Shown: positions 18,901-44,301, numbered from the stretch's first letter. The stretch is 64,000 nt of DNA from Bdellovibrionota bacterium (GCA_965207455.1 CBDBMJ010000001.1:992001-1056000), one strand, 5' to 3'. Notes: generated by a model not told the origin, from the letters alone. Program-made: numbers and translations.

Positions 18901-19055
18901 TTGTAAATATCCTTTGTTTATAACTACCCTTTCGGAACATAGTGGCAATCCATTAATGAAAAATGAATTAAAAAAATTAAAGGTTAAAAAAGCAGGTTTT
19001 TTAAAGAGTGATTTTAAAACATGTATTAGGCTTGAAAGTAATCTTAATGCTTTAA

Positions 19056-19373: not shown

Positions 19374-20162
19374 CTACCTGTGTATATTTCCCTCTCCATC
19401 ATCTAGTTTTCTGGTGCATTTGTTTTTAAGTTCATACCAGCCCTTACGAAGACAAACATAGCCACAAGTACCTGTATAGCGAGGGGCACAGCGACCAACG
19501 GAATCAAAAGTTTTCGTATTAGTGGGTAGAATACAATTAGATTTAACTGTTGAATGACAAAGCATATATTCCTGAGTAACAACCCATGAAGTTCCTACGG
19601 GAATCTTGCGACATTCATTTTTAAGTTCAGACCAACCCCTATCAGTACAACCATAACCGCAAACACCTCTATAGCCAGAAGCACAGCGACCAGAGGAGTA
19701 AGCAAAATCAGTAGTAAATAAGGTGCAATTAGATAGTACAGCTTTTTCACAAGAAAACTTACTAGGGGGAGGCTTACGGCAAGTATTTTTAAGTTTAGAC
19801 CACTGATCATCCTCGCAAGTATAACTGCAACTGCCTTCATAACCGATAGCGCAAAAACCAGAGAAACCATCAGATCTGGATGGCCATGTAAGGTTGCAGT
19901 TGTCTTTTTTCAAGTGAGGACAGGAAGGCGATGAATCCGATGGTGTCAGAGTAACCTCTAGACCATTCAGCAAATAAGGAGCATGTGCAGTAGCAAATAA
20001 AGAGCAACTAGATTGAGTTTTGGTCGGGCAGACTAAGGAAGGAGAGCCTGAAATTCCATTGGCTGTAGTGGACAGCATTATTAGGGGCAATGCAAGGATG
20101 AGGCATAATTCCTGTTGTTGGAAGAAAAGAAAGGGCTTTAAAAATAAGTACTTTTTTTCCAT
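19374..20162 (-). CDS. Secreted cysteine-rich repeat protein
   Basis: Signal-like N-terminus; three 6-Cys repeats ending CxYxCxxxxWxxLKNxC. Confidence 0.7.
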   Translation of the reverse strand: MEKKYLFLKPFLFFQQQELCLILALPLIMLSTTANGISGSPSLVCPTKTQSSCSLFATAHAPYLLNGLEVTLTPSDSSPSCPHLKKDNCNLTWPSRSDGFSGFCAIGYEGSCSYTCEDDQWSKLKNTCRKPPPSKFSCEKAVLSNCTLFTTDFAYSSGRCASGYRGVCGYGCTDRGWSELKNECRKIPVGTSWVVTQEYMLCHSTVKSNCILPTNTKTFDSVGRCAPRYTGTCGYVCLRKGWYELKNKCTRKLDDGEGNIHR

Positions 20163-20453
20163 AAAACTCCGTACTGATCAGTTTAAGATAAGAAGAAAAT
20201 CCTTTACTATAACCATTTTAGTTCCATAGTTTAGATTTGGCAAGAAATCCTTTTCTTGAAAAATCTCTTAAAAATCAGCTATATAGAGAATTTTGAAGCA
20301 GAAAATCTTGCTACCTGCTAGGTATATTTTCCATTTTATAGGTATTTTGAGGTCATTGGCTTGACCTCTTATGCAGATTTTTTTTCTTAGTTTCCGAGCA
20401 AAATAATGAAATAAAAAGTTGACAAAAGCTCAAAATGATACTATGCATTAGAA

Positions 20454-20879
20454 ATGAAGACGCATCGCACTATTTTGAAGAAAGGAAAACCAGATTTGAT
20501 AAGAAATACGATTATAGTAGGCTTAGTAGCTCTATACCCAAGTGCGAAAGCCAATCCCCAAATAGATCTTCATTGTAAGTACAAAAATGGAATCCCTCAA
20601 AGATTCCAAATAAATTCGGAGAAAGGTCAGTTAATTATGTATAGAAATACAAACCGAGGGGAAGAACAGAAGGTTGAAAAAAATTGTAATGTTAGTTCTG
20701 ACCCTGATTCTGATTTCTCATTTTCCGTACATTGTGAAAATCTCAACGACATAATAAAATTAGAATGGGGTGGTCAAAAGGGAAAGGGCCTCTTTGAAAA
20801 GATATATACTGAAGTTGAAGCGCCTCCGCTCATAAATCATATGGAATGTGAAAATCCAGTTGCATTAGAGGTCCATTAA
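20454..20879 (+). CDS. Hypothetical secreted protein
   Basis: Hydrophobic segment ending AKA; four Cys; no recognised family. Confidence 0.5.
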   Translation: MKTHRTILKKGKPDLIRNTIIVGLVALYPSAKANPQIDLHCKYKNGIPQRFQINSEKGQLIMYRNTNRGEEQKVEKNCNVSSDPDSDFSFSVHCENLNDIIKLEWGGQKGKGLFEKIYTEVEAPPLINHMECENPVALEVH

Positions 20880-23800
20880 CGAGTACATACTTCATCTATA
20901 GTTTTCCCCTTGTTATGATAGGCCTCAAAAGAAACTTTTTCTATTCTAAGCACTCCCACTATTAATTCTAAAGAGTATTTCATAGAAGACTCCATACGGT
21001 TAAGAATTTTCTCAATAGATTTTTCATACATTCTTGCTTTTGATCCGTCTAAAGTCTCCACAGCCGCAAGTAATGTGGTGCGAATCTCTTGCAGATCTGC
21101 TGTCATAGACTTAAAGATTTCCTTCATGCTATCAAGGGATATCAAGGGATATAGTTGAGCTATAGTCTTCTCCTTCATGTTCATTAACAAAATAATTAAT
21201 TGAAGGGAAATTACCTTTTCTGCATTTAACGGCTGACTTTTCAAAGATACTCCATAATATTTCAAATTTTTCAGAGAATTTTTTTGTTGTAGCATCATAG
21301 TTATGTATATCATTGTCTTTTATCTCTGTTGACATGTTTTGTAAATCTTTATAAATTGTTCTTAAAACTTCTTTGAGATAGTACTTTACTTCAAAAAACA
21401 TGGAGTATAGATAACTTGATTCTACTTTATCTCTATTGATTTTTTTTGGATCCAGCATCCCTGAATAGTATCCTCCTGGACCTGGATTACTCTCTGAACA
21501 ATCTATCCCTAAAGGGTAAAAACCAAACAATGCTTTTCGAAATTTTCTTTTAGAGCCTTCTTGTTTTATTAAAGCATCACATTTCACCTTATCATTGGGA
21601 ATTTCCACATTATAATTCCACCATAAGCTAAATCGATTCTTAGCGCTACAGTAAGAATATTTTTTATAAGGAAAAACATCATTCTCAAGTGACTTGTCAA
21701 GATCGCAATCATCCTTTCCTTCACAAGAAAGCAATTCCTTGTCACAATACATTCTTGAACCTAACTCATTCAAAAAGAAATCTATATTGTCATGGATAAC
21801 TGCTGATATACTGCTATAGTGTCTTTTTTTGTCAGAAAAATACCAATGATAATCTCCATCAACGCTAGGGAGAACAAAACGACTCTTAGTAGAACCCCTG
21901 CGGCTACAAGGATCAGCCTTTATGTTGGGAAGCAGGGAGGGAGGACGAAATTCTATATCTTGTGCAAAGGAGGCATCAACGGAATCCTTGATTTTTTTTG
22001 GCCCACAAACCATGCTAAGAAAAAGAGATTCACTTAAAGATTTTGATTTGACAACTCCTGAAAGTATATTGTATTTAGAGAAACAATCTTTTTTCTCTTC
22101 CTTAAGATATTTATCTGGATTATATGAAGTGGATTTGCCATATTCCTCCTAAAATTGATTGAGTTTTATGCTCCGCAGGGCAGTAATTTCCTTCTTTTGC
22201 TTCATTCAATTTTTTTAAGTATTGTCTTACATAACTATCACTTGCCTCAGGAAAACCTAATATCTCATATGCTGGATAAAAAAGACAATCTATTGACTCA
22301 AATTTACTTTCTTTGCATTCTTCAAATGCGTTAGTTTTTTGAATTTGTTTTGCTAAGGTAAGCACACCTTCAGCAAGTTTCTCTCTATTCTTTATAGCGA
22401 GAGAATCTTTAATTTTTTTTATTTTTTTATACGTTGGATTGCTTGTAATCCATGGAGAGGATCGTGTAAAAGAATTTAGAGATTGCTTCAAGAAAGTTGA
22501 AGCCATTAAAATCCGGCACTGCTTCTCAAAACCTATTGGAGAGGATGAGTCTAAGGTGATTGAATAATTAGCTTTAGTCAAGGCGGGGTATGCTTCTCTT
22601 AAACCTATATTCAATTTTTCAATATGTTTTTCTCCACAGTTATCCAAACTCAGATCACAAGATTTTACAACATGATATTTTTCAAAAAGAGAGACTAACT
22701 GCTTTCTTGTTATATTCACTGTTTCTTTATTTCCATCTATTCTCCATGCATGCTTATTTCGTTTAGAAACTTTTAGCTCATTTTCATAAAAATTTCGAAT
22801 ATAAAACGTATGTTCGTCTGGAAACCTAATCGATTTTATAGAGTAATCTGATAATCTCTTTTTTTCTCCTATTTTTTCACAAATTGCTATATCAGGCTTT
22901 TCATCTATTCTTCCCAAATAACCTTTTCCCTGTTCACTATCAATATTCAGATATTTATATGCTTTTTTTTGGTAATAACCTTCTTGATCATAAGGTAATT
23001 CTCTGATTGTGTCTATGGGGTTAACTCTCTCCGCACTCATAAATTTAGGTATTGATTCATTGAGGCTTTCCCCATCTTTAGGTGGATTCTTTTCTATATA
23101 ATCTACATACTTTGTAATAAAATCGCCGTAAAAACTCGATGTTTGTTCACTAACAACATTAAAGTGAGACATATAGTTCTCATACTGGTAGTAAGTATTC
23201 TGCTCTTGCTCTATTAACGAACCATGCCACGCAGACTGATATTCAATAAAATCTTCCACATTATTATAAAAATCATGAATGCTTGTTTGAGTTGAAGTGG
23301 GTGCTGTAGCCTTGGCAGGTTCATTCATACTATAGAGTACACTAGATGATGAACTAGGCTTTTCTTTCGAGAGCTCACGAGTAAGTTCTAAAACTTCATC
23401 AAGTTTTCTTTTGCTATTTCCTACATACAAAGCATCAACCTTAGTTCCCAAATAGTTAGCACCACCTTCAGTTTCAAACATCCATCCTAAAAAAAAGAAA
23501 ATATGCCATATCGACTGCCCAATCATTGCCACCGTTGTGGCAGCTGGATGAAAGGGAAGAGTAAATAAAGTTATATTTTTAATTTTTGACCATACCGCTA
23601 GATGCTTAGAAAGAAATGAAACTTTCTTTCCTCCCCTAAGAGATGATATGGCACCGGTAGTTCCATGGGCTAGACCTGCAGCTGTTAAAATATGTACAAC
23701 ATCTACCCCCAAATGGGCAAAAAATTTTCCATTCTTAAACTTCTTGTACAATGCGGCGCATTCAGCTAGTTGTTGATCTTTATCCGTTTTTGACACATAG

Positions 23801-24708
23801 GGAGCCCCTCGCCTACCTTCTTTTATTTCATTTGGATTGGATAAAGCCCCGAAAGTACAATCTTTAATACCCCAACCCACATCTGTAATAATTGATGCTC
23901 CTATAGTTGCAAGCGCCATACCCGCATAAGTATTAAATTTACTCTCAAATAGTCTTTGCATAAAAGTATGGGGGCGAATCAATCCATGAGGCAGGGGTGC
24001 AGTTCGAAGCTGACTATAAGCACCATATAAACTATTTATAAAAATAAAGTTAAAGAAATGAAAAGTAGATCTTGCATCTGTTAACATTTCCAATTCAGAA
24101 TTAACACAACGAGGATCGGATAAATCCTTCACTTCATGGAAGGCGAAACATACCACATTTCCAGCAGCAAAAAATAGCAAAACCTCCAAGGGAAAGCGAC
24201 CTATTGTTCTTTTTAGGACTACGCCTTTTCCATACTTAATTTTTTGCTCTTCTTTAATAAGTTTAGAATAATATTCTCCAATTGTTTTTTGTATATTCCC
24301 AAGCACTGAAAGCTCTGATAGACTAAGAGATCGTTCTAACAGCGAGAAATCTTCCTTTGCTCCCTTTATTTGTTCTATTTTTTTTCTCAGTCTTTTCAGT
24401 AATCTTTTCTCCAGAGGAGCAAGGACAGGACTATTACGCTCCATCTCTTCTGCTAACGTAAATATTGTTATTGCTTGACTATTCCTATGACTATTCACAT
24501 TTTGTTCTAGATCATTCTCTTTTATAATTCCTTGTAATTTTTCGAATGCATCTCTGAAAATTTCTTCATCGTCCTTAGTGCTGGGCCTACGATCTTTTGA
24601 AGTTTTTGTGATCTTTGAAAATTTAGAAGAAGTAGAGTATAGCGCTGAAGTGCAGGAAGTGGAAAATATAATAAGAGCCAGAAATAAACACAGCTTTCGT
24701 TTCATCAA
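20876..24708 (-). pseudogene. Large (~1,270 aa) lipoprotein/membrane protein gene broken into three ORFs (22120..24708, 21132..~22150, 20876..~21140)
   Basis: Lipobox-like STSC; hydrophobic segments; frame change near 22120-22150; 10-bp duplication at 21131-21150 whose removal fuses ...STISLD to SMKEIFK... Confidence 0.65.
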
Positions 24709-28943: not shown

Positions 28944-29843
28944 TTAGTGAAGAACTTTAGAAGATAGATCTAGTTTAATATCTTTGATAATTTTTTTTAA
29001 AAATTTAGTCAAAATTCTATTTGATGGCCAAACAGCGGAGATATTGTAGGGGTGGGAACATTCTTTTTCTAAAATAGGAGTAATTTGATCCCTGTACAGA
29101 TGATAATAATAATCGGGAAGTAGTGAAAACATATCGCTATTTTTAAGTGCGTTGATACAAATAGAAACATTATCGTGAAGAAGTTGTGGAGCTTGGGTCA
29201 CTCCTAACTTTAAAAGAGATGGATGTTTTTCACAATTATCTATTCCCTGGAAAGATTTTGGTAAAGTCAAAGGGTACTCAGTAAGTGCTTTTACTTTTGC
29301 CTTATTAGATAGCTTAAGAATTGGGTGGTTTTTCCTTACAAAAATGTGCATTTTTCCTTCATATAAAATTTCAGTTTCAATTTTTATATTTTCTTGAGGG
29401 GAGAAACAAAAGCCTATATCACGCTGACCATTTATGAGTGTCTTAACAACATTGGCAGAACGTAATGAGAAAATTTCAGTGCTAACCTTTGTATGTTTTG
29501 CCAAGCTTTTACTCAAAATAGGAGTGACAAGAAAATCAGCAAGGACGTGAGTTGCTACAATCTTATAATGGCCTTGATGATCAACATTATCCGATGTAAT
29601 TTCGTCTTTTAATGAATTAAATCTTGCAAGTATTTCTTCCACATGTTCAGCAAAATATTTTCCATGTGCTGTAAGAAAGATATTTTTGCCTTTTTTTTCA
29701 AATAATGGACGACCTATTTCTTCTTCAAGAAATGAAATACTATGACTAATGGCACTTGGTGAGATGCCCAATATTTTTGAAGCTTTCCCAATATGCTCAT
29801 TTTTGGCTGTCTCAAGAAAATAATTTAGTTGGTCTATCTTCAT
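28944..29843 (-). CDS. LysR-family transcriptional regulator, divergent from the biosynthetic operon
   Basis: N-terminal HTH (KASKILGISPSAISHSI..LEEEIG..LF..KGK...LT); about 300 aa. Confidence 0.93.
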   Translation of the reverse strand: MKIDQLNYFLETAKNEHIGKASKILGISPSAISHSISFLEEEIGRPLFEKKGKNIFLTAHGKYFAEHVEEILARFNSLKDEITSDNVDHQGHYKIVATHVLADFLVTPILSKSLAKHTKVSTEIFSLRSANVVKTLINGQRDIGFCFSPQENIKIETEILYEGKMHIFVRKNHPILKLSNKAKVKALTEYPLTLPKSFQGIDNCEKHPSLLKLGVTQAPQLLHDNVSICINALKNSDMFSLLPDYYYHLYRDQITPILEKECSHPYNISAVWPSNRILTKFLKKIIKDIKLDLSSKVLH

Positions 29844-29847
29844 ATTC

Positions 29848-29863
29848 GTTAGTTTCTCTCAAC
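29848..29863. promoter_or_regulatory. Candidate LysR recognition box (T-N11-A)
   Basis: gttagtttctctcaac immediately upstream of the LysR start in the divergent intergenic region. Confidence 0.35.
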
Positions 29864-29951
29864 AATATTGATGAATTCATATCATTTTACACATATATAG
29901 TCAAGCTCTACACTAGCAATCAAGAAGAAGACTAATTTAATTGGAGGAAGC

Positions 29952-31682
29952 ATGAAATTAATAAGATACAGCAGTGATAGTATGGGCAAGGCCTATGGAA
30001 TTAGTTGTTCCAATGACTTGCATCCAAATAATTCATGCGGCGCATCTTTTTTTCCAAGCTTATGTAGAGTGGAACAGGGTGGTGAAACGCTGATTCATTC
30101 ACATTATGAAACTGAAATTTTTATTGTCACAAAAGGAAGGGCTCTTGCTGTTGTTGAGGGTGAAGAGGTCTTCCTTGATCCCAATGATCAATTGCTTGTT
30201 CATCCCTTTGAGGAACATATTATAAAAAATATAGGGTCTGAGCCTCTTGAGTTCTTTGCTATTTATTCAAGAGTTAACTATAAGAATGATACTAAAAAGA
30301 GCAATACTCTCATCATTTCGGCTCCTCCCACACCCAATGGAGGTCTCCACTTAGGACATCTATCTGGTCCCTATCTTTCAGCAGATATTTTAAAAAGATT
30401 TTTATCATTAAGAGAAAAAAAGGTTAAGCATTTCTCATCGACGGATGACAATCAAACCTACACATTTAAAATGGCTCGTGACTATGGCAAAGATCAAGAA
30501 GAGATATTGCAAAAATATCATGAGATTATTTGCTCTGATTTACGTCAGGCCTCAATAGAAGTTGATGATTTTTTTAGCACATCTAAAGATGACAATTATA
30601 AAATTCATGTTAAAGAAAAATTTGAACAATTAAAGAAGAGTGATGCTGTTTCTATAAAAAAAATAGAGTTTCCTTTTTTAGATGGTTATAAATATGAAGC
30701 TTTTTTAGAAGGAATCTGTCCTGATTGTCAGAAAAAATCTTGTGGGCAATGCTGCGAATCCTGTGGATTTGTTGGTGAAGCAAGTGATTTTAATAGAAGC
30801 AATTTAAAATCAAAGGAATGTTTAACTTTAGATTTAAGTGAATTTAGAGAATTTCTTAAACAGTATCATAACAGTTTAAACCTTCAGGGCGAAGTTGCTA
30901 AAAGAGCAAAAAAATGGAGAAGAAATCTAAGTTCTTTCACACTTAATTATCCTGAAAATATTGGAATTGATGGAATGCATGTCTGGTGTGAAATGGCATT
31001 TGGAATGCTTTATCAAATCAATAAATATTCAGACAAAGTTGATGAACTTATTTATTGCTTTGGTATTGACAATTCTTATTACTATTTAGTTTTGATACCT
31101 TCAATTTTAAAAGCATTGGGCGAAGAAGGGAAACTTCCTAATAAAGTAATTATTAATGGATTTTATAATTTAAATGATCAAAAATTTTCAACGTCTAAGG
31201 GACATGCAATATGGGTGAAAGATATTGATAAAAGTGAGTGTGACAATCTAAGGCTTTATCTTTCATTGTTTAGACCTGAAGGAGCAGTTGGAAACTATAA
31301 TCATGATGAATTTCTAAAATTTTCTAATGAAATGAACTTAAAGCTAAGTCATTTAAGGTCTTTAGAGAAAAGTGAGCTTAATGGTGCATCGTTGATAGAA
31401 GCAGACCATAATTTTTACAAAAAGCTGGTCCGAAAACTTCTTTCACTAGAAAATAGCATGAGCGAAGATTTTTCGCTGAACGAATATGCATCTAACGCGA
31501 TTCAGATCTTGAATGATTATCTCTCATATATTGAATTTAGTGAAGATACATTAGAAAAAAAGAAAATATTTATTCCGCTTATAAAAATGGCTTTTTATCC
31601 AATAATGCCAAACACGTTTGAGCTTTCTGATTTTAATTCTGTTTGGAGCTTAGATTTAAGGAGAAATTTAAATGAGAAATGA
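29952..31682 (+). CDS. Cupin / methionyl-tRNA-synthetase-like fusion: putative hydrazine (N-N bond) synthetase, Spb40/PyrN type
   Basis: N-terminal cupin (HSHYETEIF...EEHIIKN) fused to a class I aaRS core (PPTPNGGLHLGH, TDDNQ, Zn knuckle CPDC..CESC, KFSTSKGH); canonical MetRS YVWxDA replaced by HVWCEM. Confidence 0.88.
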   Translation: MKLIRYSSDSMGKAYGISCSNDLHPNNSCGASFFPSLCRVEQGGETLIHSHYETEIFIVTKGRALAVVEGEEVFLDPNDQLLVHPFEEHIIKNIGSEPLEFFAIYSRVNYKNDTKKSNTLIISAPPTPNGGLHLGHLSGPYLSADILKRFLSLREKKVKHFSSTDDNQTYTFKMARDYGKDQEEILQKYHEIICSDLRQASIEVDDFFSTSKDDNYKIHVKEKFEQLKKSDAVSIKKIEFPFLDGYKYEAFLEGICPDCQKKSCGQCCESCGFVGEASDFNRSNLKSKECLTLDLSEFREFLKQYHNSLNLQGEVAKRAKKWRRNLSSFTLNYPENIGIDGMHVWCEMAFGMLYQINKYSDKVDELIYCFGIDNSYYYLVLIPSILKALGEEGKLPNKVIINGFYNLNDQKFSTSKGHAIWVKDIDKSECDNLRLYLSLFRPEGAVGNYNHDEFLKFSNEMNLKLSHLRSLEKSELNGASLIEADHNFYKKLVRKLLSLENSMSEDFSLNEYASNAIQILNDYLSYIEFSEDTLEKKKIFIPLIKMAFYPIMPNTFELSDFNSVWSLDLRRNLNEK

Positions 31683-32721
31683 AAATAACAAATATTCCGC
31701 AATCGTGATTGGCTCAGGCTGCCTTGGCGCAAGTGTTTTTCGATCTTTAAAATTAAAGGGAGTAAGTAAAGTGCTTTTAATTGACAAAAAAAAAGCAGGA
31801 GAAGGAATTAGTGCTCTCAGTGGTGGAATGGTGCGAGTGTTTCATAGAAAAGCTAAAGATAGAATGGCATCTAAGTATAGCCAGAATGTTTTCTATAACT
31901 TAGAAAGAGAAATTGGATTAAATATTTCTAAAGTAGGTTCTCTTTCTATAGTATCCGAAGAAGATATTAGAGATATAAATATTAACGACTTTGAAATCAT
32001 CAATTATGAAAATTTAAAAGAGAGATTTCCTCAATTCAATTTCTCAGATAATGAGATCGGAGTTTATGAAAAAAATGGAGCAAGTATATGCGTAAAAGAA
32101 TATATTGAAAAAGTTATTGCTCACTACAAAACTGAACATGATGACCTTATCGAAGACACGTATGTTAGTAAGATAGATAGTAGCTCAAAAGGAATACATA
32201 AAGTTATAACAACCTCTGGTACATTCCATTCCTCTAGAGTGATCGTAACCTCTGGCATTGGATTAAAAGAAATCTTACCTGAAATATATGAAGATGAATG
32301 TATCGAGCAACGTGAAATCACGGCATATAAAGTACAAACTAAAGATGCAAAGTCAATCCCTAATTTTTTTGATTACACAACAATCTTCTATGGCTCTAAG
32401 AACTTTCAAGGAGAAAAAGGGAATTTTAGAGTTGGTGTTCAATCCGGAACTAAAAACCCCATAGAAAAGGTAAGAGAATATTCCAAAAAAAGATTTTCAC
32501 TAGATTATGAAATAACTGAAGAGAAGGTATCTGCTAATGATCTTTATACTAAAAATAGAGATGGTTTCTTGGGCAAAGTCTGTGGAAGAGATGGACTTTT
32601 TGTCCTTGCAGGATGGGGAGGCGGCGCCTTTAAATTCGCTCCTTTTCTGGGTCATAAAATAGTTGAAGAAGTCATAAATAAAAGAGAGGTAATTGGAGGT
32701 TCGTATGAGATCACAATCTAA
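31672..32721 (+). CDS. FAD-dependent oxidoreductase, D-amino-acid / sarcosine oxidase family (Spb39-like)
   Basis: VIGSGCLG Rossmann motif, SALSGGMVR, C-terminal GWGGGAFKFAP; overlaps the upstream gene. Confidence 0.85.
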   Translation: MRNENNKYSAIVIGSGCLGASVFRSLKLKGVSKVLLIDKKKAGEGISALSGGMVRVFHRKAKDRMASKYSQNVFYNLEREIGLNISKVGSLSIVSEEDIRDININDFEIINYENLKERFPQFNFSDNEIGVYEKNGASICVKEYIEKVIAHYKTEHDDLIEDTYVSKIDSSSKGIHKVITTSGTFHSSRVIVTSGIGLKEILPEIYEDECIEQREITAYKVQTKDAKSIPNFFDYTTIFYGSKNFQGEKGNFRVGVQSGTKNPIEKVREYSKKRFSLDYEITEEKVSANDLYTKNRDGFLGKVCGRDGLFVLAGWGGGAFKFAPFLGHKIVEEVINKREVIGGSYEITI

Positions 32722-34003
32722 TTTTATCATTGTAGGAGCAGGTCCTAAAGCATTAGCGGTTGTTGCTAAATCGTATGTGTTAAATAAGTTATTTGATATA
32801 TCAATGCCGAAATTTCACATTATTGAAAAAAAAGAAATCGGTGCTAACTGGACAGGTAGTAACGGTTTTACAAATGGAAATTTAAAACTTGGAAGCCCGC
32901 CACAAAAAGATGTTGGATTTCCTTACAACTCAAAAATATTTGGAAATAAAAATGATGAATTAGTTAATCGTGAGATGAGAGCATTTTCTTGGGATATGTA
33001 TTTAATCAATAATGGGAAGTATGCTGACTGGATAGATAGAGGTAGACCCAGTCCGATACATATTGAGTGGGCTAATTATTTAAAGTATAGTTTTTCGCTT
33101 TTAAAGGATTATGTGGAAATTCACTCAGGAGCTTTAAAAGAAATCTTTTATAGTAATGGAACGGTTAGTGTAAATTTTGAAGATAAAGGCAATCTTAATC
33201 ATCTTGAAGCAGATTACTTGATGCTGACAGGTCCTGGGGAAACTACTTTAAAGCAATCTATTAAGAGCGAAAGGATATTTGATATTAATTCTTATTGGAA
33301 ATCTGATATTGAATTTGAAGAGAATGAAAAAATCCTCATTATAGGAGGCGGTGAAAATTCTGCGACTATTGCTCTTGATATACATCAAAAATTTAAAAAT
33401 AAAAGTATCACTTTAAATATTATCACACCCAGAGGAATACTCTTTACTAGAGGAGAGAATTATTTTGAAAATAGAGTTTTTACAGATGCCAGTAATGGAC
33501 ATTGGGACCAGTTAACTAGAGATGAAAAAATATCATTTCTTAAGCATACGGATTTTGGAGTTTATTCAGTTGATGCTATGAACGAATTAAGTTATAGTGC
33601 AAATTTAAATGTTATTAAAGGAATTGTAAAAGAAAGTACTGAATTAAATAATAAGGTTTTGGTATCGTTTGAAGATAAGAGAAAAGAAAACTCTTCCTAC
33701 GATAGAGTTATTTGGGCCAATGGATTGAAAAGAACAGGCTTACTAAGTTCAAAATTAAATTTTGAGAGCAAGAAAGAACTAGAAAGTATTATTGGAGAAA
33801 TAACGGATCGTAACCTTGAAAATAAAATAGACTACGATCTTTCATTAACTGGCATTGGAACCAAAATTTTTCTTCCAGCAATTTCAATGATTAGCCAAGG
33901 CCCAGGTCTTTCTAATTTAAGCAGTTTGGGCACTATAGCTGATAGAATTCTTTATAGTTTAATTTCTGTTGAAAATAAGGAGTTATATCATGTTTCAAAT
34001 TAG
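32705..34003 (+). CDS. Lysine/ornithine N-monooxygenase, MbtG/NbtG-like
   Basis: VGAGPKALAV, IGANW...LGSPPQKDVGFPY, WIDRGRP, IGGGENSA, QGPG.SNLS.LG. Confidence 0.88.
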   Translation: MRSQSNFIIVGAGPKALAVVAKSYVLNKLFDISMPKFHIIEKKEIGANWTGSNGFTNGNLKLGSPPQKDVGFPYNSKIFGNKNDELVNREMRAFSWDMYLINNGKYADWIDRGRPSPIHIEWANYLKYSFSLLKDYVEIHSGALKEIFYSNGTVSVNFEDKGNLNHLEADYLMLTGPGETTLKQSIKSERIFDINSYWKSDIEFEENEKILIIGGGENSATIALDIHQKFKNKSITLNIITPRGILFTRGENYFENRVFTDASNGHWDQLTRDEKISFLKHTDFGVYSVDAMNELSYSANLNVIKGIVKESTELNNKVLVSFEDKRKENSSYDRVIWANGLKRTGLLSSKLNFESKKELESIIGEITDRNLENKIDYDLSLTGIGTKIFLPAISMISQGPGLSNLSSLGTIADRILYSLISVENKELYHVSN

Positions 34004-34634
34004 ACAGCTTTATAGAAGTGATGCAAATGAAGTAAATAATATAAGAAAAGAAGCCTACGGCAAAGCCAAGGGAATGACAGTAAAAGATTCAGGGATTTTC
34101 TGGAATAAATCTGATGACCAGTCAACAGTTTTAGGCATTTATAACAAAACCAAGTTAATCGCTACAATGCGAGGTGAAATTGTAACATCCTTAGGAATAG
34201 TAGAAAAAAAAATGGAATGCCCTTGGACCTATGATAGTTTTTCTTTTCCTGCAATGATTCTTAGTAGAGCATCTATTAACTCTAAGTACGAAGGTAAGGG
34301 CTTTATTTCTATTTTAAGACTTCTTTTTTTTAAGTTGGCCCATAAATGGGAAGTTAAAACTATTCTTGGAACCATGACTGCAAATTCTCGTAGAATAAAA
34401 AGCATGGAAAATATGGGATATCGTTTTTTTGAGAATAATCTTGGTTGGGGTTGGAGAGATTACGGTTATGTATCACAAGATAAAGTTTTAATTTCAGTAC
34501 TTGATTTTGAAAAGCTTGAAACATACGCCTTGAAGAAACTAGAAACTAAATACAAAAATTTCATAGACAATGAAATAGATTTAGATTTGGATTTAGATTC
34601 AGTTTGCTATAACGAGGTTAAGGTGGTCGGTTAA
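33990..34634 (+). CDS. GNAT-fold acyltransferase
   Basis: LIATMR; LSRASINSKYEGKGFISIL acetyl-CoA motif A; MENMGYRF. Confidence 0.7.
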   Translation: MFQIRQLYRSDANEVNNIRKEAYGKAKGMTVKDSGIFWNKSDDQSTVLGIYNKTKLIATMRGEIVTSLGIVEKKMECPWTYDSFSFPAMILSRASINSKYEGKGFISILRLLFFKLAHKWEVKTILGTMTANSRRIKSMENMGYRFFENNLGWGWRDYGYVSQDKVLISVLDFEKLETYALKKLETKYKNFIDNEIDLDLDLDSVCYNEVKVVG

Positions 34635-34636
34635 CT

Positions 34637-35476
34637 ATGGACATATTAATATATATCTCTCTTCATACCATAAATATATGGTTGTTAAAAAGCCTTTCCC
34701 TAGAGAGCGTGCCCACTGAAGTAACATTAATAATAAGAGGATTAGGTTGTATTATTATGTCTGTAATTTTTGCATATAAAAATAATTTCAGTCTACTACC
34801 TAAAGATCCTAAACTTCAGTTAACACGACTTTTTACAGCAGGGCTTGGCCTTGGTCTAATGATTGCTTCTTATCAATATGTTAATGCATCAACAGCTGCT
34901 GTTTTGTTTAAGTTTGATGTAATTTTTCTTATTTTTATATCTATGTTTTTGGGAAATAAAGTAAAGACAATGATTTACTATGCTTTGGGAGCATTTGCTT
35001 TTCTTTTGACACATATATTTTTCTTTAAAGAATTTTCTGAGAATATCTTGGGATATATCACCGCACTTATTGGCACTTTTATTATTTCTATCGGATTTTT
35101 ACTATTAAATAAATCTGGTCAGTCTGAAAATCAAGCTGTAACATGCCTTGTTCCAGGAATTTCTATCAGCCTGTTTGGTGTTTTGTTGGCCTTGAAAAAA
35201 CAAGGAAATTATTTTGATACATTAAATGTTTCTTTGTTAATGGCGTTATGCTCTGGAATAATTATGTTTGCAATATATATTTATACTTTAAAATTATATA
35301 AAAAATACTCAGTTGTTTTTGCAGAAATTTTAACTTTTATTTGCATTATATTACTTGTTCCAATAGAGATTTGGGGATTGAGAACCTCGTATAGCCTCCA
35401 ACATTTATTTTCAATATTGGTCATCGCATCATATACTTTATTTGTTTATCTAAAAAAATATAAATCGCATACCTAA
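34637..35476 (+). CDS. DMT/EamA-family exporter
   Basis: About 10 hydrophobic segments in two repeats, 279 aa. Confidence 0.75.
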   Translation: MDILIYISLHTINIWLLKSLSLESVPTEVTLIIRGLGCIIMSVIFAYKNNFSLLPKDPKLQLTRLFTAGLGLGLMIASYQYVNASTAAVLFKFDVIFLIFISMFLGNKVKTMIYYALGAFAFLLTHIFFFKEFSENILGYITALIGTFIISIGFLLLNKSGQSENQAVTCLVPGISISLFGVLLALKKQGNYFDTLNVSLLMALCSGIIMFAIYIYTLKLYKKYSVVFAEILTFICIILLVPIEIWGLRTSYSLQHLFSILVIASYTLFVYLKKYKSHT

Positions 35477-39300: not shown

Positions 39301-40251
39301 CTAATTACAAGTTTTCTCAAAAAAATCAGCTCCACTAGTAGAACAATTTATGACTAAGCTAGAATTCACAGGGCTACCAAGAAAGGCTCTCTGATCCCCA
39401 ATGCCAGTGAAACTTCCCCACCGTACATTCAGTTCTATTAATTTTGGAGTATTTGTAAACATATAGGTTGCAGACGTAAGACTAGTGACATTCCAATCAG
39501 ATAAATCAGCCGAAGCTAACTTCTGAGCACCATAAAACATGGAGTCCATATTCTTTACTTGAGAGGTATCAAAACTAGATAAATCAAGCGAAGTCATGAC
39601 CGAGAAAAAAAACATAGAATTCATATTTGTTACTTGAGAGGTATCCGTATTGCCAACAGTAAATCTACTCAGCTTTTGACATTGATAAAAAGCATTGTGA
39701 AAACTTTTCCAACCCACTACTCCAAGGTTTTTTACTTCAATAAGTTTATTTTTATCATTATAGGATTCAAAATCCAAAGCTGGAAACTTTGAGCCTGTTA
39801 TTTTAATTATTTTATCTCCTGCTGATCCATAAGTATGAGTAATATCATTACTATAAGCATTAACTTCTTGCAGTTGAGAGCTATCACCCCAATCAATAGT
39901 AAAATCGTATTCAAAGTTATTTCCATCTTCATCAGATTCCTTTAGAGGAAGGGTGACAGTATAGTCTCCATCTCCATAATTTGAATTTCCAACACGCCAA
40001 ACAGACTCAAAACCACTATTGGAATTGTCATCACTATTGTCGTCATTATTGGAATCGTCATTACTATTATCGTTATTACTATTATCGTTATTACTATTAT
40101 CGTTATTACTATTATCTACATTATTAACATCACCGTTATATCCTGTAGTAGAATATTCATTGGCAAAACAGCCATTCAGTAGAACCAAAGCAGATAGCGC
40201 TACCATAGTATATACACTTCTTTGTAAAAAAATTATTGTAGACAAATACAT
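39301..40251 (-). CDS. BspA/DUF285 LRR surface lipoprotein with PKD-like domain and Asn/Asp/Ser linker
   Basis: Lipobox LLNGC; NNDNS repeats; FTIDWGD; DTSQVTNMNSMF repeats. Confidence 0.85.
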   Translation of the reverse strand: MYLSTIIFLQRSVYTMVALSALVLLNGCFANEYSTTGYNGDVNNVDNSNNDNSNNDNSNNDNSNDDSNNDDNSDDNSNSGFESVWRVGNSNYGDGDYTVTLPLKESDEDGNNFEYDFTIDWGDSSQLQEVNAYSNDITHTYGSAGDKIIKITGSKFPALDFESYNDKNKLIEVKNLGVVGWKSFHNAFYQCQKLSRFTVGNTDTSQVTNMNSMFFFSVMTSLDLSSFDTSQVKNMDSMFYGAQKLASADLSDWNVTSLTSATYMFTNTPKLIELNVRWGSFTGIGDQRAFLGSPVNSSLVINCSTSGADFFEKTCN

Positions 40252-40432
40252 TGGAAAACTCCTCCTATATATAGCTTCGGAATAATTTAAAATTACTTTA
40301 ATGAAATCTGAAAATTAAGTAAAAAATCAGGACTGCAATGAATTTCCATAACCTGAAAGCAGGTGTTCTCGTCTTAACCTTGAATCAACACATATTAGTT
40401 TTCACAAGTAAAAAGGAGGAGCCTGCAACAAT

Positions 40433-41464
40433 CTAATTACAAGTTTTCTCAAAAAAATCAGCCCCACTAGTAGAACAATTTATGACTAAATCAAAATTCA
40501 CAGGGCTACCAAGAAAGGCTCTCTGATCCTCAATGCCAGTGAAACTTCCCCATTGTACATTCAGTTCTATTAATTTTGGAGTATTTGTAAACATGCCGGA
40601 CGCAAACCTAAGACCGCTCACATTCCAATCAGATAAATCAGCCGAAGCTAACTTCTGAGCACCATAAAACATGGATCTTGTATTCGTTACTTTAGAGGTA
40701 TCCAAACCAGATAAATCAACCGAAGTTATGGCCGAGGAAAAAAACATGGCACTCATATCTGTTACTTTTGAGGTATCCAAGCCAGATAAATCAAGCGAAG
40801 TTAAGCTCCGGGAGTAATAAAACATTTGACTCATATCCGACACTTCTGAGGTGTCTGTATTGCCAACAGTAAACTCACTGAGTTTTTTACACTGATAAAA
40901 AGCATTGCTAAAATCTTTCCAACCTACTACTCCAAGGTTTTTTACTTCAATAAGTTTATTTCTATCATTAGAATAAAGATACAAAGTTGGAAATTTTGGA
41001 CCTTCTATTTTAACTGTATAATCCCCAGCTTCTGCATATTTATGATCTGCACTAATACTTTCGGTATTAAATGTTTCAGATCTTGATCCATCACCCCAAT
41101 CAACGGTGAACTCGTATTCAAACTCATTTCTATCTCTATCGGTTTTCTTTAGAGGAAATGCAATGCTAAGCTTTCCATCTCCATAATCCGAATTTCCAAC
41201 ACGCCAAACAGACTTAAAACTACTATTAGAAACATCATCGCCACTGTCACTACCACTGCCACTGTCACTGTCATTGTCACTGTCATCTATATCAACAGTG
41301 TCAGTATTATCGGGATCAGCGGTAGTACTGGCATTATCACTGTCATTGAAAAGCTCTATACTAGAATGTCCTTTACCAGTACAGCCATTCAATAGAGCTA
41401 GTGTGGATAGCATTATTACGATATAGATACTTCTTTGTAAAAAAGTTATTTTAGATAAATACAT
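40433..41464 (-). CDS. BspA/DUF285 LRR surface lipoprotein, tandem paralog
   Basis: Lipobox LLNGC; FTVDWGDG; DTSKVTDMSAMF; near-identical C-terminus to 39301..40251. Confidence 0.85.
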   Translation of the reverse strand: MYLSKITFLQRSIYIVIMLSTLALLNGCTGKGHSSIELFNDSDNASTTADPDNTDTVDIDDSDNDSDSGSGSDSGDDVSNSSFKSVWRVGNSDYGDGKLSIAFPLKKTDRDRNEFEYEFTVDWGDGSRSETFNTESISADHKYAEAGDYTVKIEGPKFPTLYLYSNDRNKLIEVKNLGVVGWKDFSNAFYQCKKLSEFTVGNTDTSEVSDMSQMFYYSRSLTSLDLSGLDTSKVTDMSAMFFSSAITSVDLSGLDTSKVTNTRSMFYGAQKLASADLSDWNVSGLRFASGMFTNTPKLIELNVQWGSFTGIEDQRAFLGSPVNFDLVINCSTSGADFFEKTCN

Positions 41465-41697
41465 TGGAAAACCCTCATCATTATTTTTTCAAATTTAACA
41501 AATCTACTCCTACACATGGTTTCGGAAGAATTTGGAATTACTTTAGGAAAAAAAAATAATGAAATCAGGTAAGAAATTGGGGTCGCAAGGGATTTCCGGA
41601 ACCTGAAAACAGGTGTTTCTGCTATAACCTTGAATCAATACCTGTTCGTTTTTATGTATGGAAAGGTAAGTTACCGCATCCACCTTTGCCTATCTTT

Positions 41698-41997
41698 TTA
41701 TACCTTCACCCGGCCCAGGTGTTTTTTCAGTTCGTCGGAAACCATACTTTGAAAAGGAGAAAGCCAAACCGACAGCTTGATGGAGATACTAACCTCAGAG
41801 GAAGCCCCTTTTTCCACCACCATTAAATCACCAGAAAACTTTTTGCCCTCTATATGACCCTTAGTTTTCTTGTCTTCCCAAGAAATATTCCCTCCCCATT
41901 TTTCCAAAACTTTTTTTTCCTTAAGGTAGGATTTGACCGCCTTATACACATCATCCTTATTTCCTTTTATTTTTTTATTTATCTTTACTGCTGGCAT
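41698..41997 (-). CDS. Polyhydroxyalkanoate-system-associated small protein (PHA_gran_rgn-like)
   Basis: MPxVKI...W...F.G.L.V...V.I.L...LSPF pattern; start overlaps the ygfZ-like stop. Confidence 0.55.
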   Translation of the reverse strand: MPAVKINKKIKGNKDDVYKAVKSYLKEKKVLEKWGGNISWEDKKTKGHIEGKKFSGDLMVVEKGASSEVSISIKLSVWLSPFQSMVSDELKKHLGRVKV

Positions 41998-42911
41998 TGT
42001 TTCCCTTCCTTCAATTGTAAGCTTTCCACTGTTACGGTGCCCCTTTCCAATTCTAGGCAAGTCCCCTGTATACGATAAGACCACTTTACAACTCCTAAAG
42101 CAAGTGCCCCACCTAGCTCTTTTGAAACCGCACTGGTAATTTTTCCAACTACTAGGTCTCCCTTTTTTAAGATCATTCCAGGGGTTAGTTCTTGATCACT
42201 GGTCAACTGTACTAAAGTTTTGGGTGGCTTTCCTAAATTTAAGGACTTCTCAATCACCTCCTGCCCAGGATAGCAGCCTTTTTCCCGATGGATCCAAGAT
42301 AAAAACCCAGCCTGCAATGCGGGAGTGGAATTCTCCCACTCCTGGTGGTGACGGGGCCACTGACACAAAATCCGAAGGCGCTCCCAAAAAGCCTCCTCCT
42401 CCCTTAGTTGCCAACCTCCTAAAAAATCCTCACCATTTATACAACAAGTCCAACCTAGGACGGGCATGGGCCAAGAAAGATAATTACCCTCTAGCGTATA
42501 AGAAAAATAGGGAAATAGATCAGCCTGTGGGATGGGCAGGGAAGAAGGAGAGGGGTGTGGATTTTCCAAACTCTCGAAATTCTCGAAATTCTCGAAACTT
42601 TCGAAGCCCTTGGCTTCTATTTTTTTCAACACCCAAGCCTCTCCAAAATGAAGACGCTCCAGTTCCTTTTCCAATAAGGAAGCACAGGAGGGCTCACAGA
42701 TAAGGAAAAATCCATCTTTAGACGTACGAAAGAGTAAAAAAGCTGCCACTAGGGTGCTGGTTCCAGTCAGGATCAAGGCACGGGTAGCTCCACCCACAGG
42801 CATTTGAGAAACCTCCACTGTGGAAATACGGTGAAGGTATTCGGGAGCATCCTTTCCCTGTAAAGAAAAGCAAGCTAAAGACAAGGGACGATAGGATTTG
42901 ATTCTGCGCAT
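41985..42911 (-). CDS. ygfZ: YgfZ/GcvT-family folate-binding protein
   Basis: GKDAPEYLHRIST; KGCYPGQEVI signature; VGKITS. Confidence 0.8.
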   Translation of the reverse strand: MRRIKSYRPLSLACFSLQGKDAPEYLHRISTVEVSQMPVGGATRALILTGTSTLVAAFLLFRTSKDGFFLICEPSCASLLEKELERLHFGEAWVLKKIEAKGFESFENFENFESLENPHPSPSSLPIPQADLFPYFSYTLEGNYLSWPMPVLGWTCCINGEDFLGGWQLREEEAFWERLRILCQWPRHHQEWENSTPALQAGFLSWIHREKGCYPGQEVIEKSLNLGKPPKTLVQLTSDQELTPGMILKKGDLVVGKITSAVSKELGGALALGVVKWSYRIQGTCLELERGTVTVESLQLKEGKQCQQ

Positions 42912-43017: not shown

Positions 43018-44301
43018 ATGGCAGAAAATTTGGAACCCCTATTCCAGGGATTTGGAAAACTTAATTATGAAGAGCGCTTGCTGCGCCTAAAGTCCATGGG
43101 AAGACTCAGTGATCAGGACTTGGATACCCTAGAAAACAAAACTTCCCTAGATATCAACCTTGCCGAAAGCTTTATTGAAAATGTGATTGGCTCTTTTTCT
43201 ATTCCACTGGGCATTGCCACTTATTTTTGTATTGACGGAAAAGACATTCCCATACCCATGGCCGTAGAGGAAACCTCCATTATTGCTGCTGCCAGTGCAA
43301 CTGCAAAATGGATCCGCAAACAAAATGGTACTATCTCCACAGGATCCAAAGGACGCTATATCATCGGACAAGTCCAATTTCCATCCGTCAACAACCTTCC
43401 TGCCTTGGAAAAAAAGATATATGAAAAAAAGAACGATCTCCTTACTGCAGCCAATTCCATCGTACCCGGCTTAGTGCGAAGGGGTGGTGGTGTAGAGGAA
43501 ATACAACTGCGACATATAGATCGCCCCGACGGAAAACAAATGCTCATCCTACATATCTATTGCGACCCCTGCAATGCCATGGGAGCCAACCTTATCAACC
43601 AAGTCTGTGAACACATTAAACCACTACTGGAGGAATGGACAGGAGAACAGGTTGGTCTATGCATTCTTTCCAATCTTATTGATTCGAAACTCACCCAAGC
43701 TACTGTGCGTATTCCCAATATGGATCCTGCCATTGGTAAAGGCATTCAAGAGGCCTCTCTCTTTGCGGAGTTGGACCCCTACCGGGCTGCCACCCATAAT
43801 AAGGGAGTACTCAACGGCATCGATCCCATACTGATTGCCACTGGAAACGACTGGCGTGCAGTGGAGGCTGGAATACATGCCTATTGCTCCAGAGGAAAGC
43901 AGTACTCCCCTGCCACAAAATGGAGAATGGAGTCCAATACATTAGTGGGCCACCTGGAGGCACCCATAGGTGTGGGAACCGTGGGAGGGGTTACTCGCCT
44001 ACACCCCACTGCTGCTGTTTGTATGCGTATTTTAGGCGTGAAAAGCTCTGATGAACTCTCTCGCATTACAGCCGCTGTAGGGCTAGTACAAAATCTAGGT
44101 GCCCTACGAGCACTCTCCACCGTAGGCATCGTAGATGGGCATATGAAGCTCCATGCAACGAACTTAGCTATCGAAGCTGGCGCAAAACCCAATGAAATCC
44201 AAATCATGAAAAAACGGCTTATAGAGTTGGTTACCCATAAAAAGTCCCTCACACTCACCTGTGCAAAAGACGTACTTTCTAAGCTCCGGGCTACCACTTA
44301 A
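43018..44301 (+). CDS. mvaA: Class II hydroxymethylglutaryl-CoA reductase
   Basis: ENVIG, AVEETSIIAA, NAMGAN, RAATHNKG, GNDWRAVEA, GHMKLH. Confidence 0.93.
   Translation: MAENLEPLFQGFGKLNYEERLLRLKSMGRLSDQDLDTLENKTSLDINLAESFIENVIGSFSIPLGIATYFCIDGKDIPIPMAVEETSIIAAASATAKWIRKQNGTISTGSKGRYIIGQVQFPSVNNLPALEKKIYEKKNDLLTAANSIVPGLVRRGGGVEEIQLRHIDRPDGKQMLILHIYCDPCNAMGANLINQVCEHIKPLLEEWTGEQVGLCILSNLIDSKLTQATVRIPNMDPAIGKGIQEASLFAELDPYRAATHNKGVLNGIDPILIATGNDWRAVEAGIHAYCSRGKQYSPATKWRMESNTLVGHLEAPIGVGTVGGVTRLHPTAAVCMRILGVKSSDELSRITAAVGLVQNLGALRALSTVGIVDGHMKLHATNLAIEAGAKPNEIQIMKKRLIELVTHKKSLTLTCAKDVLSKLRATT

Follow-up and report, generated by a model that had tools for sequence, protein, structure and literature searches.

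Gene content of the locus

A stretch of 64,000 nucleotides (nt) from a Bdellovibrionota bacterium (GCA_965207455.1, CBDBMJ010000001.1:992001-1056000), analyzed as a whole and hereafter termed the window, carries at positions 28944 to 35476 a regulator gene and a divergent five-gene operon, headed by a fusion of a zinc cupin with a domain resembling methionyl-tRNA synthetase (MetRS). Judged from sequence, predicted structure and gene neighborhood, this locus is very likely an N-N bond-forming cassette, in which the fusion would act as a hydrazine synthetase. Its features are as follows.

28944..29843, minus strand: LysR-family regulator; HTH_1 (57.1 bits) and LysR_substrate (68.5 bits), both above the Pfam cut-offs
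29853..29914, plus strand: conserved divergent control region, of putative function, from the alignment of 14 intergenic regions between LysR and synthetase genes
29952..31682, plus strand: candidate hydrazine synthetase, cupin::MetRS-like fusion (576 aa); Pfam, PDB, motifs, structural model and tree
31672..32721, plus strand: DAO-family flavin adenine dinucleotide (FAD) oxidoreductase (349 aa); Pfam DAO, 84.5 bits
32693..34003, plus strand: flavin N-hydroxylase (436 aa; 432 aa from ATG 32705); Lys_Orn_oxgnase, 48 bits, and PDB 4d7e
33990..34634, plus strand: ORF5, putative acyltransferase (214 aa) with the predicted fold of a Gcn5-related N-acetyltransferase (GNAT); longest open reading frame (ORF) from TTG 33969, 221 aa
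34637..35476, plus strand: EamA-like membrane protein of the drug/metabolite transporter (DMT) superfamily (279 aa); EamA, sub-threshold

A listing of the ORFs in the window recovered all six genes at the coordinates given in a preliminary description of this DNA, which had been made from the sequence alone. Its account of a tightly coupled operon diverging from a LysR gene also holds, as adjoining genes overlap by 11 to 35 nt or stand 2 nt apart and the LysR gene, with both of its Pfam domains, lies on the minus strand. The cupin and the MetRS-like part were found in one protein (Cupin_2, residues 37-105, 42.7 bits; tRNA-synt_1g, residues 120-460, 139.6 bits), and the Pfam match of the DAO-like flavoenzyme agrees with its earlier naming. 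The hydroxylase starts at TTG 32693 or ATG 32705. For ORF5 the true start is likely ATG 33990, since the public gene call (P0180) and the N-termini of orthologs agree on it. No carrier protein, adenylating enzyme, nonribosomal peptide synthetase (NRPS) or polyketide synthase (PKS) is encoded at the locus. The gene arrangement is not due to chance, because the same set recurs in all 15 of the related loci that were found through ORF5 alone.

The cupin-MetRS fusion as a hydrazine synthetase

The N-terminal zinc cupin covers approximately residues 33-106, with H49, H51, E55 and H89 as predicted ligands, and is followed by a MetRS-like ligase domain (approximately 118-576) containing HLGH (133-136), KFSTS (411-415) and a single four-cysteine knuckle (C256/C259/C268/C271). 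The four cupin residues align with the zinc ligands D63, H65, E69 and H103 of RHS1 (PMC8664883), and 136 of 139 aligned rows have HHEH in the tetrad columns. HLGH, KFSTS and the pair D373/N374 are invariant among 24 aligned fusions. The first two are the counterparts of HLGH and KFSTG in PyrN, whose contacts N143, Q182, E286, D420 and N421 are retained in the alignments as N129, Q168, E269, D373 and N374 (bioRxiv 10.1101/2025.08.22.671884). D420 and N421 are the Asp-Asn pair with which PyrN binds both substrates, and E56 is the essential Glu of its cupin.

In a single-sequence search of the PDB the best match is PyrN-C (9vq4/9l8v, E 1.9e-26), followed by Pyrococcus abyssi MetRS (E 7.4e-23). 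A profile of 24 cupin-fused proteins scores PyrN-C at 410.8 bits, P. abyssi MetRS at 375.6 bits and bacterial MetRS at no more than 252 bits. The AlphaFold model of the fusion has a mean predicted local distance difference test score (pLDDT) of 86.4, and the first three Foldseek ranks are all taken by PyrN-C chains (9l8v; template modeling (TM) scores 0.72/0.78, root-mean-square deviation (rmsd) 3.4), the best MetRS structure reaching TM 0.66/0.63 with an rmsd of 4.8. The margin of PyrN-C over MetRS is modest in fold TM as well as in profile bits.

A separate canonical metG is present elsewhere in the genome (451.9 bits against a cut-off of 336.35), and in the same search the fusion scores 116.9 bits. 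The fusion likewise stays below the cut-offs of two metG models, with 118.5 against 336.35 bits for TIGR00398 and 191.3 against 553 bits for NF008859. In a maximum-likelihood tree of 74 rows, obtained by a quick search under LG+G4 without a mixture model, 72 cupin-fused proteins are split from the genome's MetG and a second canonical MetRS (Shimodaira-Hasegawa-like approximate likelihood ratio test (SH-aLRT) support 99), these being the only two canonical sequences and both lying on long branches. Cassette synthetases form one 36-row group with modest support (SH-aLRT 86), and the window's enzyme falls in a 6-row clade with support of 100. The preliminary description had proposed a phylogeny of the fusion with Spb40, PyrN and Tri28 against housekeeping MetG; the separation from MetG is recovered, and the three named enzymes are not among the rows. 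Its wider claim, that the first three genes match the Spb38/39/40 set rather than housekeeping MetRS, agrees with the computational tests that were run (metG scores, tree, PyrN-C fold and the hydroxylase match described below). The fusion is an uncharacterized member of a large known enzyme family and does not represent new chemistry.

Acceptor pocket, hydroxylase and oxidase

Mapped via the PyrN alignments, the amino acid pocket of the window's enzyme is made up of S123, A124, D165, Q168, W345, M348, N374 and Y378 (SADQWMNY), and G351 occupies the position of PyrN R390. Known codes are TPDQWMNH for the glycine enzymes Spb40 and AzsN, SADQWYGH for the threonine enzyme ThzN (PMC12376268) and SFVQALNR for the glutamate enzyme PyrN (PMC12376268; bioRxiv 10.1101/2025.08.22.671884). 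The code SADQWMNY was not found in the literature searched, and the cassette enzymes read xADQWM-NY in 16 of 16 cases. Glycine is the acceptor we favor, with some reserve, and hydrazinoacetic acid (HAA) would be the likeliest core product, because the D-Q-W-M-N core is that of Spb40 and AzsN and because ThzN accommodates threonine by changing exactly two of these residues, Met to Tyr and Asn to Gly (PMC12376268).

The N-hydroxylase matches a solved "L-Lys monooxygenase" (PDB 4d7e) at E 2.1e-77 (264.1 bits, residues 11-421 against 4-413). It had been described as an MbtG-like N-hydroxylase, of which the enzyme class stands; the match to MbtG (9nns) is weak (E 3.8e-5), and NbtG-like is the better label, after 4d7e, which we take to be NbtG. 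The protein is probably an L-lysine N6-monooxygenase, and its sequence makes lysine a likely nitrogen donor. The DAO protein has weak PDB matches to sarcosine oxidase and N-methyltryptophan oxidase, and its gene always lies between those for the synthetase and the hydroxylase (15 of 15 loci). Because of this fixed position and the precedents of Spb39, Tri27 and AzsM (PMC11705231, PMC10445470), the enzyme is placed by analogy in the Spb39-type slot, where it would release the hydrazino acid by oxidative C-N cleavage.

ORF5 and the EamA-like permease

ORF5 has no match in Pfam or NCBIfam at E<=0.001. Its only weak Pfam match is FeeM (PF21926), at E 0.018 and 15.3 bits against a 27-bit cut-off. 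Nine orthologs align well (54% mean column identity), and with the AlphaFold model (pLDDT 86.9) Foldseek returns GNAT-fold proteins alone at probability 1.00, comprising PA3270-type N-acetyltransferases, RimI, LasI, BjaI and FeeM, the last being the top structural match, tied with other GNATs. Weak FeeM matches occur in 37 of 64 family members (best E 2.4e-4) and Acetyltransf_1 matches in 10 of the 64 at E<=1. Among 120 remoter relatives, Acetyltransf_9 is matched by 14, Acetyltransf_1 by 10, FeeM by seven and Acetyltransf_5 by four; one also matches DUF5774, and the majority match nothing. An Atlas search of ORF5 also indicates GNAT clusters. The earlier label of GNAT is therefore upheld for the fold, as seen in the predicted structure, and not for membership of a recognizable GNAT family. 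On this model ORF5 is a diverged GNAT-fold protein founding an unannotated family, which comprises 114 clusters at 90% identity, all of the named ones called "hypothetical protein," and 413 representatives at 50% identity (E<=0.001, among 1.84 billion).

What might such a protein acylate? Tri31 and AzsS are GNATs that transfer an acyl group, preferably from succinyl-CoA, to the distal nitrogen of HAA, and Tri31 also takes hexanoyl-CoA (bioRxiv 10.1101/2021.05.12.443849; PMC10445470). By analogy, the chances that ORF5 acts on the released hydrazine are about even.

Distant ORF5 paralogs (E 1e-17 to 1e-34) are also present in genomes without a cupin fusion (L052:6721-7332, L053:5810-6439 and L053:12454-13068, L054:6320-6952 and L055:6146-6712). 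Their neighbors include a Haem_oxygenas_2 iron enzyme with a LysR gene, Asp/Arg-hydroxylase-like oxygenases, a radical S-adenosylmethionine (SAM) enzyme and a pyridoxal 5'-phosphate (PLP) enzyme. The paralog in L054 is divergent from pepP, a gene that also neighbors the cassette of the window. These contexts fit a general role in acylating unusual amino acids, and the substrate is not fixed by them.

The last gene of the operon had been identified as EamA. Its protein is EamA-like, scoring 21.7 bits against a PF00892 cut-off of 28.2. None of 14 orthologs passes this cut-off; eight of them have sub-threshold EamA matches, and no other family is matched. Its Atlas feature matches all fall in the EamA set (30 of 30, score 0.97), and every one of the 15 related loci has the gene, on one side of the operon or the other. 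The protein is presumed to be an exporter.

Conservation, control region and acquisition

The related loci come from an ORF5-alignment search of species-representative genomes, which used one peptide pattern only and was narrow. It yielded 15 loci, 14 labeled as Bdellovibrionota lineages and one as a "Gammaproteobacteria bacterium" metagenome-assembled genome; a single fusion protein as query retrieved no loci in genome or metagenome contigs, and alignment queries were needed. The order synthetase, DAO, hydroxylase and ORF5, together with an EamA-like gene, is found in 15 of 15 loci, and a divergent LysR gene adjoins the cassette in 14. The six genes also occur together on a metagenome contig (L051), at 68-82% identity. 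Matches to the fusion that include the cupin occur in 18 of 401 sampled genomes of the phylum, the window's genome counted, and one further genome matches the ligase part only (E 1.7e-48). Strong ORF5 matches occur in 10 of the 401, all 10 of them fusion-positive.

Most related loci contain genes that are absent from the window: of 16 loci, 11 have a SAM methyltransferase after ORF5, seven have a small Cupin_3 protein and four have a classical Acetyltransf_1 GNAT. Such genes stand directly after ORF5 in L035-L044 and L046 (e.g., L039:9597-10379 and L039:10379-10717), and one lies at L032:10459-10932. The product of most relatives is probably a methylated derivative, and the window has the minimal form of the cassette. 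In two related loci a gene seems broken, the LysR match being split in L036:4130-4877 and the hydroxylase match in L042:7627-8926, which may reflect decay or assembly error.

The divergent control region contains a block resembling a LysR box (29853-29894), which includes TCAACAATATTGA, and promoter-like -35 (TTTACA, 29886-29891) and -10 (TACACT, 29909-29914) elements; GGAGG is found 6 nt upstream of the fusion ATG at 29952. The 14 aligned intergenic regions share the block TTTTTTCAAC-N9-TGAAAAT-N-ATCATTTTTATTCA, and in all of them the -35 element keeps its TT and the -10 element its TA. A promoter scan lists the -35/-10 site, but the counts of promoter and terminator sites in the region equal those expected by chance in shuffled sequence, and the promoter call is made solely from conservation across loci. 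Regulator and putative operator evidently travel together with the enzymes.

The six-gene set is probably a horizontally acquired island, because the GC content of its genes (28.9-33.5%, with 32.2% for the LysR gene) is far from that of their neighbors (43.2-47.2%). At 31.7% GC the operon falls in the lowest 0.76% of 4,738 same-size windows of the genome. The closest copy, that of L051, lies on a contig of 31-39% GC with unrelated flanks. No homologs of the cassette were found in one family-level relative (88% complete) and eight order-level relatives searched. The locus stands alone, as the preliminary description held, with housekeeping genes abutting both ends. On one flank Pfam identifies a proton/sodium pyrophosphatase, an EVE-domain protein and Xaa-Pro aminopeptidase (pepP), and on the other rpoZ, clpX, clpP and dusB. 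Between pepP and rpoZ neither a tRNA gene nor one for an integrase or transposase is present, and the flanking repeats are just short AT-rich matches as expected by chance. Four order-level relatives keep dusB/clpP-clpX-rpoZ without the island; pepP, LysR and cassette matches are absent beside these genes, and no clean insertion site is seen. ClpX has no match at E<=1e-80 in the family-level relative. Contamination was considered and rejected, as housekeeping genes flank the island on both sides within a contig of 1.875 Mb.

Elsewhere in the window, two transposase genes (DDE_Tnp_1 and Mutator family) lie at 6-1343 and 3783-5060, in a stretch of 30-37% GC approximately 24 kb from the cassette. 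A 444-aa RCC1-repeat protein (an RCC1-like beta-propeller) is encoded at 17614-18948, and a stretch of 34% GC at 19374-24708 contains ORFs without a Pfam match at E<=1e-5, one of them of 862 aa (22120-24708). Just past dusB are two tandem genes for DUF285-domain proteins (39301-40251 and 40433-41464), where GC drops to 35.5% at 40001-42000. An HMG-CoA reductase gene, a marker of the mevalonate pathway, is found at 43018-44301 (317.5 bits).

Proposed pathway and alternative readings

We regard the locus as probably a self-contained, LysR-controlled hydrazino-acid cassette of the Spb38-40/Tri26-28/AzsLMN type that was probably acquired horizontally. Homology is given enzyme by enzyme, and we infer the chemistry of the steps. 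The NbtG-like flavoenzyme would hydroxylate L-lysine at N6. The MetRS-like domain would adenylate a small amino acid, most likely glycine, and esterify the N6-hydroxyl with it, and the zinc cupin would then rearrange the ester to form the N-N bond. The DAO-type oxidase would cut the lysine C-N bond and so release HAA. ORF5, a GNAT-fold protein nearest to FeeM-type N-acyl amino acid synthases, would acylate the free hydrazine nitrogen, in the manner of Tri31 and AzsS with succinyl-CoA, and the EamA-like permease would export the product. Given that genes for a carrier protein, an adenylating enzyme, an NRPS and a PKS are all missing from the locus, the pathway likely ends with a small (acyl-)hydrazino acid. 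A more specific proposal is speculative and, in our judgment, rather doubtful. It holds that the cassette ultimately yields an N'-acyl-hydrazinoacetate, exported in free form and methylated in most relatives, that ORF5 makes it as the founder of "N-acyl hydrazino-acid synthases" related to FeeM, and that Bdellovibrionota direct it at their prey as a chemical weapon or a signal, for instance by mimicking glycine or poisoning PLP enzymes.

Several observations weigh against the six-step pathway set out above, beginning with the synthetase itself. At the first zinc ligand the Asp of RHS1 is replaced by His, and a search with the cupin alone places DddK-type cupins (E 1.6e-7) ahead of RHS1 (E 0.0014). 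The margin of the single-sequence phmmer search is small, with 95.9 bits for PyrN-C against 84 bits for archaeal MetRS. The rows of the tree include no characterized hydrazine synthetase, so that the link to the family is made by PDB matches, motifs and gene context. The oxidase is assigned by family and position alone. As to substrates, the DQWM-N core is nearly invariant among the 120 best homologs, which leaves its discriminating power uncertain, and the last pocket residue is Tyr in place of the His of glycine enzymes. Hydrazine synthetases can also use N-hydroxy-ornithine, -diaminobutyric acid (DABA), -putrescine or -diaminopropane (PMC12376268), and the substrate of the hydroxylase is not settled by its 264-bit match to a lysine enzyme. 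Finally, ORF5 has no family-level match to characterized enzymes, and it occurs fused to the hydroxylase. At L046:7714-9633 (plus strand, P0236) the two form one 639-aa frame whose junction has neither a stop nor a Met, and a second, compositionally different fusion of 637 aa (P0238) is found among sequence representatives. The existence of two independent fusions connects ORF5 with the hydroxylase more than with the final step.

The alternative that survives best, although we consider it unlikely, is that the N-N bond is made from other building blocks, a non-glycine amino acid and/or a hydroxylamine other than N6-hydroxylysine, to give a different hydrazino acid. The pocket differs from those of glycine enzymes at three of eight positions, with S, A and Y in place of T, P and H (PMC12376268), and its first four residues, SADQ, are those of ThzN. 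Some enzymes have mixed Ser/Gly or Ala/Gly specificity (bioRxiv 10.1101/2025.08.22.671884), and non-lysine donors are known (PMC12376268). Against this, W345, M348 and N374 are as in Spb40 and AzsN, and include the two positions that ThzN changes to fit threonine, while the hydroxylase matches the solved lysine enzyme over its full length.

A further possibility, less probable again, is that ORF5 acts on the hydroxylase product or a lysine-bound intermediate, either acylating N6-hydroxylysine as in hydroxamate siderophores or protecting an amino group, so that an acylated lysine derivative or another hydrazide would be exported. The two single-chain fusions speak for this, as do the constant position of ORF5 directly 3' of the hydroxylase gene, the weak paralogs beside oxygenases in other small cassettes, and the proposal of Iyer and Aravind (2010), by analogy with aerobactin, that the associated GNAT modifies lysine N6 (PMC2922099). 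However, overlapping genes fuse by a small indel, and fusion need not imply consecutive steps; an ORF5 that acylated N6-hydroxylysine would draw on the same intermediate as the synthetase; and Tri31 and AzsS, the characterized GNATs of HAA pathways, use free HAA (bioRxiv 10.1101/2021.05.12.443849; PMC10445470). Nor is there a siderophore receptor or further siderophore assembly gene at the locus. A hydroxamate siderophore locus was also considered as the overall reading and was rejected, since synthetase and oxidase are invariant core genes.

It is very improbable that the island arrived recently and is carried in this genome as a silent or decaying passenger. Its strong GC deviation, the lack of homologs in the family- and order-level relatives searched and the damage in some related loci (L036 and L042) would suit such a view, but the six reading frames are intact and full length relative to orthologs, the catalytic motifs are intact and the conserved block of the control region is retained. 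That the fusion is a functional or spare MetRS with unrelated neighbors can be dismissed almost entirely. In its favor are matches to Pfam tRNA-synt_1g and to several NCBIfam metG models (E 1e-25 to 1e-56) and the rank of MetRS structures next after PyrN-C in the fold comparison. Against it, the scores of all metG models stay far short of the cut-offs, a canonical metG exists elsewhere, KFSTS replaces KMSKS, a zinc cupin is attached at the N-terminus, the tree sets the fusion apart from canonical MetRS, and linkage to hydroxylase and oxidase is kept in 15 of 15 loci.

Significance and comparison with known systems

Hydrazine synthetases are of interest both for biocatalysis and because they mark pathways to N-N natural products. 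To our knowledge, nearly all those characterized feed large actinomycete pathways. A survey by Matsuda et al. (2024, ChemBioChem) reportedly sorted 401 synthetases into 13 clades. The hydrazino-acid cassette proposed here belongs to a family already known as widespread, is unsurprising to a specialist and would not alter the understanding of N-N bond formation. What is distinctive is its minimal architecture of regulator, enzymes and exporter, combined with an unannotated acyltransferase family, in a compact cassette type found in many uncultured Bdellovibrionota. With five structural genes, the pathway is unusually easy to test. Identification of the product would give a function to an acyltransferase family of approximately 114 clusters, and possibly the first small-molecule product of a lineage known mainly for predation. 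If the N'-acyl-hydrazinoacetate proposal were true, this would be the first natural product from such a pathway assigned to the lineage, and the first hydrazine cassette to act as a whole pathway rather than as a feeder module.

No link of Bdellovibrio-like bacteria to N-N chemistry was found in the literature searched, in which one metallophore paper has "Bdellovibrio" and "hydrazine-forming" once each, and the 2024 survey may already list the clade. Likewise, no paper found there names Bdellovibrio together with Spb40 or hydrazinoacetic acid. The names Bdellovibrio, Bacteriovorax, Halobacteriovorax and Oligoflexia are absent from the readable supplements of PMC8664883 and from those of PMC13149037.

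The system was predicted by Iyer and Aravind (2010), who saw in the combination of a MtRS paralog, a cupin and a lysine N6-monooxygenase a peptide ligase, and listed it for actinobacteria, proteobacteria and firmicutes; a word search of their paper gave no mention of Bdellovibrio (PMC2922099). The window shares with their system the strict three-way association, the frequent GNATs and the separate conventional MetRS that is always present (PMC2922099). Since 2018 the chemistry has been solved biochemically, and more than 1,200 hydrazine synthetases are estimated to exist (PMC13149037).

Among individual proteins, PyrN of the pyrazomycin pathway (PyrN/PyrM; PyrN-C structures 9L8V, 9VQ4, 9VQJ and 9VR2) is the best match of solved structure by sequence, profile and fold. 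HLGH, KFSTx and the substrate-holding D-N pair are conserved in the window's fusion, with approximately 21% identity in the structural alignment. PyrN uses D-glutamate through R390 and R425, where the window has G351 and Y378, and it has two zinc knuckles against one in the window's fusion, which is also some 80-100 residues shorter than typical family members. The zinc cupin RHS1 of Rhodococcus jostii (PDB 5UQP) agrees in its metal tetrad and essential Glu (E69, equivalent to E55) (PMC8664883), but it is a stand-alone protein with Asp as first ligand, and it resembles the cupin of the fusion weakly (E 0.0014 for a single-sequence search and 5.4e-12 for the profile). FeeM (PDB 2G0B) and the LuxI-type acyl-homoserine lactone synthases resemble ORF5 in fold, with 8% identity between ORF5 and FeeM and all Pfam scores below the FeeM cut-off.

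The closest parallels are the cassettes of s56-p1 (Spb38/39/40), triacsin (Tri26/27/28), azaserine (AzsL/M/N) and N-nitroglycine (NngK/L/M), which have the same three enzyme types as the window: a lysine N-hydroxylase, a DAO-type FAD oxidase and a cupin::MetRS-like didomain (PMC11705231, PMC10445470, PMC13274452, bioRxiv 10.1101/2021.05.12.443849). They represent the lysine plus glycine route to HAA (PMC11705231, PMC10445470, PMC13274452). The D-Q-W-M-N pocket core and an accompanying GNAT-fold acyltransferase (the Tri31/AzsS/Spb43 slot) are further likenesses. The gene order of the window, synthetase-oxidase-hydroxylase, differs from theirs, as do pocket positions 1, 2 and 8 from those of their glycine enzymes, and the window's acyltransferase, unlike those of the Spb, Tri and Azs systems, belongs to an unannotated family. 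Whereas these cassettes feed large actinomycete clusters via an adenosine monophosphate (AMP)-ligase and a carrier protein, that of the window has neither and is completed by an exporter and a regulator.

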